This document shows positions 17,360 through 28,095 of a stretch of 64,000 nt of DNA, in pieces. Position numbers and translations under genes: made by a program. This DNA comes from Nitrospirota bacterium (GTDB lineage Bacteria; Nitrospirota; Leptospirillia; Leptospirillales; Leptospirillaceae). Position 1 is the first letter of the stretch, and every line of letters starts with the position of its first letter. Below the pieces are notes generated by a model, which saw only the letters and a list, made by a program, of their open reading frames with translations, did no database searches and was not told the origin of the DNA. Location of the stretch: the NCBI GenBank assembly GCA_027314645.1, contig DAHVAL010000007.1:18758-82757 (forward strand). The letters run 5' to 3'.

Positions 17360-19027
17360 TCATCCGGGCCCGGAAAAGCTCTCCGCCAGTAGCTCGAGTT
17401 CCTCAGGCGTCCCCTTGTCGAGAACGGACACCCACGACAGTCCAGTCCGCTCGACGAAGGAACGGAAGTCCTCTCCATTGTGGCAGGCGCTTTCATAGAA
17501 GGCAAGAAGCCTGGAAAGAAAGGGGGCGACCTGATCCTTTTGAAGCTTGACGCCCGTGCGCCGATTGACCGAAAGCTCCCCGCTCATCGAGCCTCCCAGG
17601 AGAAGCTCAAACCCGTCCTCCGCTCCATGGTCGCCGTTCTTTCCCTGAATCCCGGACAGTCCGATATCGGCGATTCTCATCTGACCGCAATCGTTCGGAC
17701 ACCCGGAAAGGTGGATGTAGGGAACGGACGGAAGATCCGGAAACCGCTTTGACAGGGATTGGGACAGCGTGTGGCCCAGATCCTTCGTCTCGGCAATGGC
17801 GAGTCGGCAGAAGGCTTTTCCCGTGCAGGAAATCGTCCTCGCGTCGAAATCGGGCTTGATCGAAAGTTCCCCCATTTCCGCGGATTCAAGGAACGGCTCG
17901 AGCCGTTCGAGGGAAATCCCCGGAAGGATAATATTTTGCTGGGAGGTAAGCCGGACTTCGCCCCGGCCGAACCTTTGGGCAAGTTCCGCGATCTTGGAGA
18001 TCCTGTCCGGATCGAGAGCCCCTTGGGCCACGGACAGCCCGGCATAGAAGCGTCCGTCGGCCTGGCTTTGAATGCCCAGGTGGTCGCGTCCGGACCGTCC
18101 GATAAAGGAATTCGGGACAACGGGATCGAGGGGGGAAAGCGAATATCCGAGGAGCCGTTCAAGTTCGGCCGTAAAGGATGCGGCCGTCCATCCGTGCTCC
18201 AGGAAAAGGAATTTGAGCCGCGCCCTCTCCCGGCTCTGGCGAAGCTCCTCCCGGTCCCGGAACAGGGAGGCGATGGCGACGAGCGCAGGGACCGCCTGAT
18301 CCGGGGAGAAAAACCGGGGAAGAAGGAGGGAGAGATGGGGACGGGTGGCCAGCCCCCCACCGACTCTGAACGCAAACCCTTCTCCATGCTCGGGATGGGT
18401 GACCGGGAGAAGGCCCACATCATTAATTTCGGGATAGGTGCACCCCAAGGAGCACCCGGAAAAGCTGATCTTGAATTTCCGGGGAAGGTTGTAAAAGGCC
18501 GGATTCCCGTTCAGCTCCGCATTGGCTTTGGCGAGAATCTCCCGATCGATCGCGCGCTCCTCGTCGATGAGATCGGCCACCGGACAGGAGGTCATGTTCC
18601 GGGTATCATCTCCGCACGCGCCCTGGGTGGTGAGCCCCGCCTCCCGGAGACCGTCGAAAAGGGGCCGGAGATCTTCGGCCCGGACCCAATGGAGCTGAAT
18701 GTTCTGCCGGACCGTGATGTCGGCGGTCCCCCGGGCGAACCAGAAAGAGAGATTCCCTATGGTGGCGAGCTGGGAGGAGGTCAGGCTCCCCCCCGGAATC
18801 CGGATGCGCACCATAAAATACTCGCTCCCTCCCCCCCGGACTCCCGATCCATCCCCTTGGGGATAGATGCCCCACCACCGGGTCCGGACATCGAGATCCT
18901 CCCGGGCCATCCCCTCGAAGCCCCGGTCCGCGCCGGACAGGATCGCATCGAGAGACTCCCAGGGATTCAAAGACCCCTTGATCCGTTCATGACGGGCCGT
19001 TTTTGACTCCACGATCGGGTTGTCCAT
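17360..19027 (-). CDS. Ferredoxin-dependent sulfite/nitrite reductase (siroheme / 4Fe-4S hemoprotein)
   Basis: Cluster/siroheme Cys motifs SCTGKAFCRLA and LSGCPNDCGQ. Duplicated NiR/SiR ferredoxin-like half-domains. ATG 19027 has GGAG 5 nt upstream; the track start is GTG 19033. Confidence 0.88.
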   Translation of the reverse strand: MDNPIVESKTARHERIKGSLNPWESLDAILSGADRGFEGMAREDLDVRTRWWGIYPQGDGSGVRGGGSEYFMVRIRIPGGSLTSSQLATIGNLSFWFARGTADITVRQNIQLHWVRAEDLRPLFDGLREAGLTTQGACGDDTRNMTSCPVADLIDEERAIDREILAKANAELNGNPAFYNLPRKFKISFSGCSLGCTYPEINDVGLLPVTHPEHGEGFAFRVGGGLATRPHLSLLLPRFFSPDQAVPALVAIASLFRDREELRQSRERARLKFLFLEHGWTAASFTAELERLLGYSLSPLDPVVPNSFIGRSGRDHLGIQSQADGRFYAGLSVAQGALDPDRISKIAELAQRFGRGEVRLTSQQNIILPGISLERLEPFLESAEMGELSIKPDFDARTISCTGKAFCRLAIAETKDLGHTLSQSLSKRFPDLPSVPYIHLSGCPNDCGQMRIADIGLSGIQGKNGDHGAEDGFELLLGGSMSGELSVNRRTGVKLQKDQVAPFLSRLLAFYESACHNGEDFRSFVERTGLSWVSVLDKGTPEELELLAESFSGPG

Positions 19028-19208: not shown

Positions 19209-19285
19209 TGAGGAACAAACTTATCGAATTTAACATCTTTCGGAAGTATTAGCGGAGTCAAAGGATTCGGGTGTTTAGGAGTATT

Positions 19286-27228: not shown

Positions 27229-28095
27229 TTACTCGCTTGAGAGGATCCTCCTGATCGTGCGGATTTCGGGGGGATAGGTCCAGAGGACCGGCAGCAGTCC
27301 GGAAAGATGGGTCGCATCCACCTTCTCCGATCCTTCGTAGAGGGCGATGGCCTTCAAGACCTTGACCACCAACTTCCACCTCCGGTCCGAAAGGGAAATT
27401 CCCTCCCGCCCAAGGCGATGGCGCAAATTCCAGAGTTTTTTGATGATCTCCTTCTCGACCCGAACCTCCCGGAGCGGACCTTCCCGTACGGCCCGGAAGG
27501 ATTCGAGGGAGACCTGCGCGCAATTTCGCGGGGCCTCCCCGGTGGGGCTGTGTTCCTCGAGAAGGTCGGAAAACGAGTCGAATTGGCGAACAGGCTCGAT
27601 CAGGCACCGGAGGGCAAATCGGTCGAAGAAGGCGTCGAGATGATCGGACTGGGAGGGATGGGTGTTGCTGGCCGCGAACAGGGACAAGAGGTGGGCGGGT
27701 CTTGGCTCCGGATCGTGCCATATCCGTTCGTTCATGAAAGAGAGCAGGGTCAAAAGAAGCGATTTGGGGGCGCGGAGAACCTCGTCTAGGAACACGATCG
27801 CCCCGTCGGCGATCCCTTCTTTCATGAGCGGGGACGACTCAAGGGATCGCCGCGCGCTTTCCTGATGGAGGAGCCGCTCGAAGTAGACAAGACAGGGAAA
27901 GTGGGCGGCGCACAAACGGATGAGAAGACTTTTTCCCGTTCCGGGGGGCCCCACGAGGAAAAGATGCTCTCCGGAGAGAAGCGAAAGCACAAGTGCGCGG
28001 ATCACTTCCTCCCGTTCCTTGAGGACCCCGTTCAGGCTCCCTTCCATCGATCTGAGCGCGTCAAGAACCCTGAAAGGCTCGCTCGAACCGCTCAT
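27229..28095 (-). CDS. AAA+ ATPase of the MoxR/RavA type
   Basis: Walker A LFLVGPPGTGKS, Walker B AIVFLDEV, sensor-1 LFAASN, DRFALR, and the RavA-like motif LSDRRWKLVVKVLKAIALYEG. The ATG overlaps the upstream stop (ATGA at 28092-28095). Confidence 0.8.
   Translation of the reverse strand: MSGSSEPFRVLDALRSMEGSLNGVLKEREEVIRALVLSLLSGEHLFLVGPPGTGKSLLIRLCAAHFPCLVYFERLLHQESARRSLESSPLMKEGIADGAIVFLDEVLRAPKSLLLTLLSFMNERIWHDPEPRPAHLLSLFAASNTHPSQSDHLDAFFDRFALRCLIEPVRQFDSFSDLLEEHSPTGEAPRNCAQVSLESFRAVREGPLREVRVEKEIIKKLWNLRHRLGREGISLSDRRWKLVVKVLKAIALYEGSEKVDATHLSGLLPVLWTYPPEIRTIRRILSSE

Follow-up and report, generated by a model that had tools for sequence, protein, structure and literature searches.

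This analysis concerned a gene for a RavA-like (MoxR-class) AAA+ ATPase that ends a type IV secretion system (T4SS) operon in a Leptospirillum-related bacterium (Nitrospirota, Leptospirillia). The DNA examined, called the window below, was the 64,000 nt from position 18,758 to 82,757 on the forward strand of contig DAHVAL010000007.1 (Nitrospirota bacterium, assembly GCA_027314645.1). The gene, here called moxR, occupies 27229−28095 on the minus strand and is the last of nine co-oriented genes in the order virB2-B3-B4-(B5 slot)-B6-B8-B9-B10-moxR; neighboring genes overlap by 4 nt or stand no more than 13 nt apart. The motors recognized in T4SSs are VirB4 and VirD4, joined in some classes by the PilT-type ATPase VirB11. 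MoxR/RavA ATPases form hexamers, remodel or mature multi-subunit, often membrane-bound, complexes, and are normally paired with a VWA-domain protein, an adaptor considered near-obligatory. An earlier note on this DNA had proposed that the MoxR-class protein either replaced VirB11 by non-orthologous displacement or was added as an assembly chaperone. The genome was viewed through the 64-kb window, and the negative results for VWA, VirD4 and relaxase genes cover the open reading frames (ORFs) scanned in it and the flanks of orthologous loci.

The moxR product is 288 aa long, and each motif quoted in the earlier note was found in it: GPPGTGKS (Walker A) at residues 49−56, IVFLDEV (Walker B) at 100−106, AASN (sensor-1) at 141−144, DRFALR at 158−163, and the RavA-like segment LSDRRWKLVVKVLKAIALYEGSEKVDATHL...LW at 235−272. 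Its best Pfam family was bpMoxR (PF20030; E = 3.7e-26, 91.9 bits against a cut-off of 27); AAA_5 (2e-15, 57.5 bits) and AAA_lid_8, the RavA-type lid (7.9e-13, 48.5 bits), also exceeded their cut-offs. A PDB profile search built from nine orthologues returned RavA (3nbx/6q7l) as the top match, with E~3e-50 over RavA residues 9−296, followed by MoxR 2r44 at 5e-10. The AlphaFold2 (AF2) model had a predicted local distance difference test score (pLDDT) of 93.9 and a predicted template modeling score (pTM) of 0.92. In Foldseek it matched RavA with a query-normalized template modeling score (TMq) of 0.87−0.88 at 28% identity, and its top 50 matches were RavA, a MoxR (2r44) and MCM. The likeness to RavA, previously judged by eye, was therefore upheld by both profile and structure. 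Identity as a VirB11/PilT-type ATPase was ruled out: T2SSE (PF00437) was matched in neither Pfam nor NCBIfam, and no VirB11 appeared among the Foldseek top 50. Because the Pfam, profile and structural matches point to RavA but the NCBIfam RavA equivalog NF010054 gave 105 bits, far under its cut-off of 681, we conclude that the protein is a RavA-like AAA+ module, distinct from RavA proper.

The protein is a bare module. It ends where RavA residue ~296 aligns, and the gene has no viaA neighbor. Its helix-2-insert region is 13−20 aa shorter than that of RavA or bpMoxR and is mostly coil; the AF2 model retains a hairpin before sensor-1 at residues 125−133. Neither a signal peptide nor a clear transmembrane (TM) segment was found in it, the sole weak hydrophobic stretch being the β1/Walker A region. 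The Walker A Lys, the Walker B Asp-Glu, the sensor-1 Asn, the arginine of DRF and the SDRxW sensor-2 motif were invariant in 56 homologues, and the AAA+ motifs were likewise invariant in a nine-sequence alignment. The protein is thus predicted to be cytoplasmic and, by its motifs, catalytically intact.

The operon that moxR closes begins with a gene for an 88-aa VirB2/TrbC-type pilin (35500−35766, on the minus strand like all the others), which matched Pfam TrbC (PF04956; E = 2.9e-8, 34.2 bits, cut-off 27.9) and has two hydrophobic segments. The next gene (35258−35503) encodes a small membrane protein of about 81 aa that had no Pfam match and is called VirB3-like from its position between virB2 and virB4 and its two hydrophobic segments; orthologues hold the equivalent position in loci L001−L003. 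The VirB4-family ATPase (32761−35268; 835 aa, or 810 aa at NCBI) has the Walker A motif GRSGSGKS and matched Pfam P-loop_TraG (E = 2.7e-16) and AAA_10, as well as the NCBIfam models TraC-F-type (4.2e-47) and VirB4_CagE (7.4e-26), both under their equivalog cut-offs. At the VirB5 position (32180−32764) lies a gene for a 194-aa protein, predicted to be secreted from its N-terminal signal-like hydrophobic segment, without a Pfam match and kept in Leptospirillia loci. The 405-aa VirB6-like protein (30949−32166) is polytopic, with at least five hydrophobic segments; it had no direct Pfam match, and by tblastn it was 25−28% identical to a gene from the second lineage described below (group A) that does match Pfam TrbL/VirB6. 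Its residues ~300−405 form a basic, low-complexity C-tail of about 100 aa, rich in Lys, Arg and Pro and presumably cytoplasmic, which is a candidate handle for an AAA+ ring.

The 225-aa VirB8-like protein (30268−30945) is bitopic, with one TM segment at ~36−67, and fell just short of the Pfam VirB8 cut-off (E = 1.4e-4, 22.2 bits vs 23.2). The 393-aa VirB9-like outer-membrane core protein (29090−30271) matched Pfam CagX (E = 1.6e-10, 41.6 bits, cut-off 34.2) and NCBIfam VirB9 (5.3e-10). Because the 333-aa product of 28092−29093 matched Pfam TrbI weakly and under the cut-off (E = 4.7e-5), it was modeled in AF2. The model has an N-terminal TM helix, a disordered Pro-rich linker and a C-terminal barrel (pLDDT >90) with a two-helix antenna. 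All of its top 24 Foldseek matches in the PDB belong to the VirB10 family, including Xanthomonas VirB10, TrwE, CagY, DotG, F TraB, pKM101 TraF and ComB10. The model thus identifies this protein as a genuine VirB10 homologue, as had been supposed. Its TM helix spans residues 3−26, which leaves essentially no cytoplasmic tail; this state is not conserved, since the relative L129 has a VirB10 tail of ~44 aa. Overlaps of 4 nt join virB8 to virB9 (ATGA), virB9 to virB10 (GTGA) and virB10 to moxR (ATGA at 28092−28095). On the minus strand, the moxR ATG (28095−28093) overlaps the virB10-like TGA (28094−28092), so the placement of moxR as the last, translationally coupled gene of the VirB operon was correct.

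The operon is a T4SS operon in which VirB4, VirB2, VirB9 and VirB10 are recognizable and VirB8 and VirB6 are borderline. No VirB11 was found among the window ORFs tested, and neither VirD4 nor a relaxase turned up among those scanned or in the 10 kb around Leptospirillia loci. By composition the Leptospirillia machine is closer to the ComB DNA-uptake system than to a conjugation system, a likeness whose meaning is a matter of speculation. A scan for promoters and terminators gave counts near those expected from shuffled sequence. The most conserved gene of the cluster was that for the VirB2/TrbC-like pilin, at 91−98% identity where VirB4 had 68−76% and MoxR 65−69%, and at 76−82% in loci where MoxR had 40−47%. 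This suggests, from sequence comparison, that the pilus is under unusually strong constraint.

Linkage of moxR to virB10 was then followed in other genomes. A scan for the C-terminal motif, with one genome per species, gave 35 loci that sorted into group L (Leptospirillia/'Nitrospirae' metagenome-assembled genomes, MAGs) and group A (Ca. Acidulodesulfobacterium and unclassified acid-mine MAGs); every one of these loci with enough upstream DNA carries upstream T4SS genes. As a control set, a metagenome scan with generic Walker-B and sensor-1 patterns yielded 80 loci of the wider family, which were pooled with the earlier ones. T4SS genes were present in all 52 of the T4SS-linked moxR loci (38 of 40 genome or contig loci plus 14 metagenome loci) and VWA genes in none. 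The 48 VWA-linked out-group loci all had a VWA gene 1−2 kb downstream and none had T4SS genes; a further 20 loci were too short for context calls. The T4SS and VWA contexts of this MoxR family were mutually exclusive.

The 52 linked loci come from two phyla, represented by Leptospirillia and Ca. Acidulodesulfobacteriota, with MoxR identity down to 26%. In every locus with visible context, moxR directly follows virB10 and the start and stop codons overlap; the linkage is therefore not peculiar to this genome. Orthologues in Leptospirillia are 280−314 aa long and 40−70% identical; they were found in Leptospirillum groups II and IV, with cultured L. ferriphilum among their hosts. Both Leptospirillum group II and a more distant MAG of the Leptospirillia keep the nine-gene operon in an equivalent chromosomal neighborhood. 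Two short homologues with 31−33% identity follow a VirB4...VirB10 series and precede a VirD4-like gene. Three gene orders were seen (B10-MoxR-end, B10-MoxR-VirD4 and B10-MoxR-B9), and their constant element is moxR after virB10. The moxR gene of Ca. Acidulodesulfobacterium overlaps the end of virB10 with its ATG and the start of virD4 with its stop codon. The locus of Acidulodesulfobacterium sp. H_13 reads VirB3-like, VirB4, a 394-aa ORF, VirB6/TrbL, VirB8, VirB10/TrbI, MoxR, VirD4, a 108-aa ORF, VirB9-like, a 214-aa ORF and an SLT transglycosylase, and is flanked by housekeeping genes. The Acidulodesulfobacteriota loci, which carry VirD4 and the SLT transglycosylase, have no relaxase within 10 kb. 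A divergent relative of this type of cluster, L129 (P0255, 283 aa), has the order VirB10-MoxR-VirB9-like without VirD4 between.

A census of P-loop ORFs with the canonical Walker A pattern GxxxxGK[ST] found VirB4 and MoxR in group L clusters, MoxR and VirD4 in group A clusters, and no third matching ORF within 10 kb in MoxR-bearing loci. The group A VirB4 (L031, 3127−5727) was missed because it lacks the canonical pattern and has a variant Walker A region, HGIVFGKTRSGKG. A tblastn search of 72,556 plasmids gave 85 matches, all below 35% identity; of two contexts inspected, one was VWA-linked and the other an isolated AAA gene outside any T4SS cluster, and neither was accepted as a plasmid-borne example. 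Literature searches found no description of a MoxR/RavA ATPase linked to a T4SS. The previous remark that no T4SS of this composition had been described thus agrees with the searchable literature. No dedicated NCBIfam or PADLOC model for a T4SS-linked MoxR was found.

The T4SS-linked MoxRs formed one clade (bootstrap 166/200, 83%) in a neighbor-joining (NJ) tree of 59 sequences and 276 columns, based on simple distances and rooted on RavA; the nearest relatives were VWA-linked bpMoxRs of ~380 aa. Several derived traits mark the clade. A deletion of 13−20 residues lies in the helix-2-insert region just ahead of Walker B. The protein stops immediately past the AAA lid and so has neither the triple-helix and LARA domains of RavA nor the helical tail of ~100 aa of bpMoxR. 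The C-terminus carries the motif LWTY(P/Y)xx(I/V)R, and Pro110 and Tyr274 are clade-derived residues. An exhaustive search of 1.84 billion representatives gave 2,413 family members at E<=1e-30. Because the clade signature was present in about 8 among the best 150 of these, we concluded that the clade is small and, as sampled, confined to two acid-mine/sulfide-associated lineages. The homologue L128 (P0262, 289 aa, from a 1.1-kb contig with 29% GC) has the LWTY end and the truncation, yet its helix-2 insert is complete; it could represent a third lineage or an evolutionary intermediate.

The surroundings of the operon are chromosomal in character. Because a conserved, convergent ORF of 169 aa (26671−27180, plus strand) follows, moxR is the last gene of the operon. 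This ORF adjoins moxR in 22 Leptospirillia loci, with 30−52% identity; it was not found in group A loci and matched no Pfam, NCBIfam or PADLOC family. The flanking genes are of housekeeping type, for isocitrate dehydrogenase, a HemN-like radical SAM enzyme, an XerC/D-type recombinase and sulfite reductase. Neither a GC anomaly nor a tRNA gene was found at the T4SS locus, and its status as a genomic island was not upheld. Membership in a defense system was also rejected, PADLOC giving a trivial P-loop match alone. Farther away, at ~43000−56600, lies a large island of glycosyltransferase, heptosyltransferase, FkbM-methyltransferase and ABC-exporter genes, which is probably involved in lipopolysaccharide or exopolysaccharide biosynthesis. 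A 461-aa ORF at 19271−20656 (plus strand), 6.6 kb from moxR with several ORFs between, had a weak match to NHL repeats of the beta-propeller type. Many Leptospirillia keep it in synteny, 5−8 kb away from the T4SS genes, but it was unmatched in L003, L018 and every group A locus. As a ternary-system partner of the MoxR it was rejected on account of the opposite strand, the distance and the inconsistent linkage.

A VWA gene was found neither in the operon nor among the Pfam-scanned ORFs of the window nor within 10 kb on either side of orthologous loci, in agreement with what had been claimed for this locus. A hidden VWA domain in the operon was also considered and rejected: there was no Pfam match, and the sole unassigned soluble protein, that of 194 aa, is predicted to be secreted and has no metal-ion-dependent adhesion site (MIDAS) motif. 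Elsewhere in the operon, D-x-[ST]-x-[ST] strings are few and fall within VirB4, the VirB6 tail or the VirB10 linker.

Comparison with known systems sets this protein apart from each of them. It shares with E. coli RavA (3NBX, 6Q7L) the AAA+ module, the Walker A and B, sensor-1, DRF and SDRRW motifs and the AAA_lid_8 lid. It differs in having neither the triple-helical nor the LARA domain, in the 13−20-aa deletion in the helix-2 insert, in the lack of a ViaA/VWA neighbor and in its T4SS operon context. In RavA the LARA domain binds LdcI and lipids (PMC6987120, PMC9489729). The bpMoxR proteins of MoxR-vWA-beta-propeller ternary systems and of related MoxR-VWA pairs are the best Pfam family and, at 30−37% identity, the nearest outside relatives, but the relatives are ~380 aa long, have a helical C-terminal extension and, in each of the 48 informative loci, precede a VWA gene, with no T4SS gene. 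Unlike the MoxR-vWA-beta-propeller ternary systems, the T4SS-linked MoxR has no adjacent vWA gene and no consistently linked propeller gene. With VirB11 it shares its gene position, directly after virB10 and before virD4 where present, whereas the two proteins are unrelated in fold and superfamily. VirB11 and MoxR families both form hexamers, and both are predicted to be soluble cytoplasmic P-loop ATPases. EccA of the type VII (ESX) system and ClpV of the type VI system follow the same concept, in which a cytosolic AAA+ ring supplements a machine driven mainly by a motor of another class, but they belong to other AAA+ clades (CbxX-like and Clp/Hsp100) and to other machines. The nearest precedent found was the linkage of MoxR/GvpN and vWA genes to thaumarchaeal type IV pilus loci (PMC4858521); type IV pili are not T4SSs, and the vWA partner is retained there.

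Whether VirB11 was displaced or was never present was judged from the nearest MoxR-less relatives of the operon. The nearest VirB4 relatives found outside Leptospirillia came from integrative elements of Elusimicrobia and other uncultured bacteria. The nearest MoxR-less loci inspected (L044−L046 and L127) have a TraC-like VirB4 of 24−26% identity, TrbC, VirB3, VirB8/9/10-type genes and VirD4, and carry neither VirB11 nor MoxR. L046 reads CagX-TrbI-VirD4, so that virD4 directly follows virB10 at the place that moxR takes in Acidulodesulfobacteriota. In a VirB4 tree, also NJ on simple distances, the two MoxR-bearing lineages fell together beside these relatives, with weak support (39/100). Several T4SS classes (F-type, Bacteroidetes and Gram-positive) work without VirB11. 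Because the four MoxR-less sister T4SSs also lack VirB11, the comparative context favors acquisition over displacement. The most economical reading of the sequences is that a MoxR became detached from its VWA partner and was inserted after virB10 of a natively VirB11-less T4SS, and that its place in the 'VirB11 slot' is a positional coincidence, although the protein may, as an additional cytoplasmic ATPase, play a part loosely like that of VirB11. Of the two alternatives in the earlier note, replacement of VirB11 is thus not borne out by the sister loci, and addition of an accessory or assembly ATPase is the better fit.

We therefore consider it somewhat more probable than an even chance that the RavA-like ATPase, recruited from a MoxR-VWA pair, serves a divergent, chromosomal T4SS as a dedicated component or accessory factor. 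True displacement, in which an ancestor had virB11 after virB10 and MoxR took over as the hexameric traffic ATPase, docked under VirB4 and switching between pilus biogenesis and substrate transfer, has several points in its favor. The moxR gene stands exactly at the virB11 place (after virB10, and before virD4 in Acidulodesulfobacteriota), no locus has a VirB11-like P-loop ORF within 10 kb, and VirB4 and MoxR are the only ATPases of the Leptospirillia clusters. The VirD4-less Brucella VirB and Bordetella Ptl systems pair VirB4 with VirB11, and the Leptospirillia set of VirB4 and MoxR resembles such a pairing. This explanation nevertheless appears unlikely, since it must account for the four sister loci with neither VirB11 nor MoxR, and the existence of VirB11-free classes means that no vacant slot needed filling. 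The VirB4 protein, moreover, matches TraC-F-type and TraG P-loop models better than VirB4_CagE, and an AAA+ module is unrelated in fold to a PilT-type RecA-like ATPase.

The protein probably came from an ordinary MoxR-VWA pair and entered a VirB11-less T4SS lineage. By analogy with other MoxRs, it would assemble into an ATP-hydrolyzing hexameric ring on the cytoplasmic side of the inner-membrane platform. VirB4 would be the most plausible docking partner, with VirB3, the N-tail of VirB8 and the basic C-tail of VirB6 as other candidates. The N-terminus of VirB10, which had been put forward as an interaction site, is an unlikely one in this organism, because its TM helix begins at residue 3 and leaves no cytoplasmic tail. 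Since its helix-2 insert is shortened and the adaptor-binding extensions are gone, the protein may dock directly, without a VWA protein to capture the client. The ring would work as an assembly or activation remodeler, as MoxRs do for other membrane or multi-subunit complexes, and the T4SS would thereby have another motor in addition to VirB4, in loose analogy with VirB11, EccA or ClpV. A membrane-complex client is plausible because RavA-ViaA sit at the inner membrane and act on respiratory complexes there (PMC9489729, PMC3893208).

Several points weigh against recruitment as a dedicated T4SS factor. A VWA partner may be encoded outside the 64-kb window. With its helix-2 insert shortened, the protein is without an element characteristic of the wider MoxR clade and may therefore not work like other MoxRs. 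The absence of VirB11 from sister loci is based on four loci, drawn from a homologue search that, like the other homologue searches, was bounded by a word index; both trees are NJ trees on simple distances. The VirB4 tree joins the two MoxR-bearing T4SS lineages weakly (39/100), so that a single co-inherited unit of T4SS and MoxR is not firmly established, and MoxR may have been transferred between T4SSs.

A function on the cargo side, in which the ATPase would handle substrates or pilin by unfolding, extraction or delivery in the manner of EccA, seems to us quite improbable. In Leptospirillia such a factor might partly stand in for the missing VirD4, and it is true that moxR is retained in Leptospirillia clusters and in L129, where no virD4 stands beside it, and that the VirB2 pilin is unusually constrained. 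AAA+ proteins are also commonly unfoldases or extractors. In Acidulodesulfobacteriota, however, MoxR and VirD4 coexist and are translationally coupled, so that MoxR is no simple VirD4 substitute; candidate cargo or effector genes are not linked, and the shortening of the helix-2-insert region, usually pore-facing in the clade, speaks against classical threading. The notion that moxR is a passenger unrelated to the T4SS, such as the remnant of a decayed MoxR-VWA(-beta-propeller) conflict or chaperone system downstream of virB10, draws on its best Pfam family, which is the MoxR of MoxR-vWA-beta-propeller ternary systems, and on the NHL-repeat ORF 6.6 kb away, but is extremely improbable in view of the linkage, with overlapping start and stop codons, in 52 loci of two phyla and under three gene orders, the invariant catalytic residues, a monophyletic clade with derived features of its own, the lack of any VWA gene in linked loci, the position of the NHL ORF on the other strand, several ORFs away and unmatched in L003, L018 and group A, and the lack of PADLOC matches of substance.

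Recruitment of a RavA-like ATPase to a T4SS would have consequences for both families. Neither a T4SS that has recruited an AAA+ subunit nor a minimal RavA-like subfamily free of VWA appears to have been described. A conserved MoxR subunit would add a new class of energizing or assembly factor to the T4SS repertoire, and would show that secretion machines recruit remodelers from unrelated systems. The clients and mechanism of MoxR proteins are still poorly defined. In this clade, a minimal RavA-like protein of 288 aa dispenses with VWA and has its client all but identified by its operon, which would make MoxR action on a client testable by reconstitution. The stronger proposal, that the MoxR-class ring is a genuine additional T4SS motor, docked under VirB4 where other T4SSs have the PilT-type VirB11, we hold to be doubtful; if true, no MoxR before this one would have combined a defined, genetically hard-wired client with the lack of a VWA adaptor. 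The Leptospirillum machine, which belongs to the core genome, lacks VirD4 and a relaxase, resembles ComB and has an extremely conserved pilin, could be a device for DNA uptake or exchange. Recombination has reportedly been seen in acid-mine-drainage populations of Leptospirillum, and this T4SS might be what underlies it. The system may also bear on gene flow, or on cell-cell or cell-mineral contact, in bioleaching and acid-mine communities.

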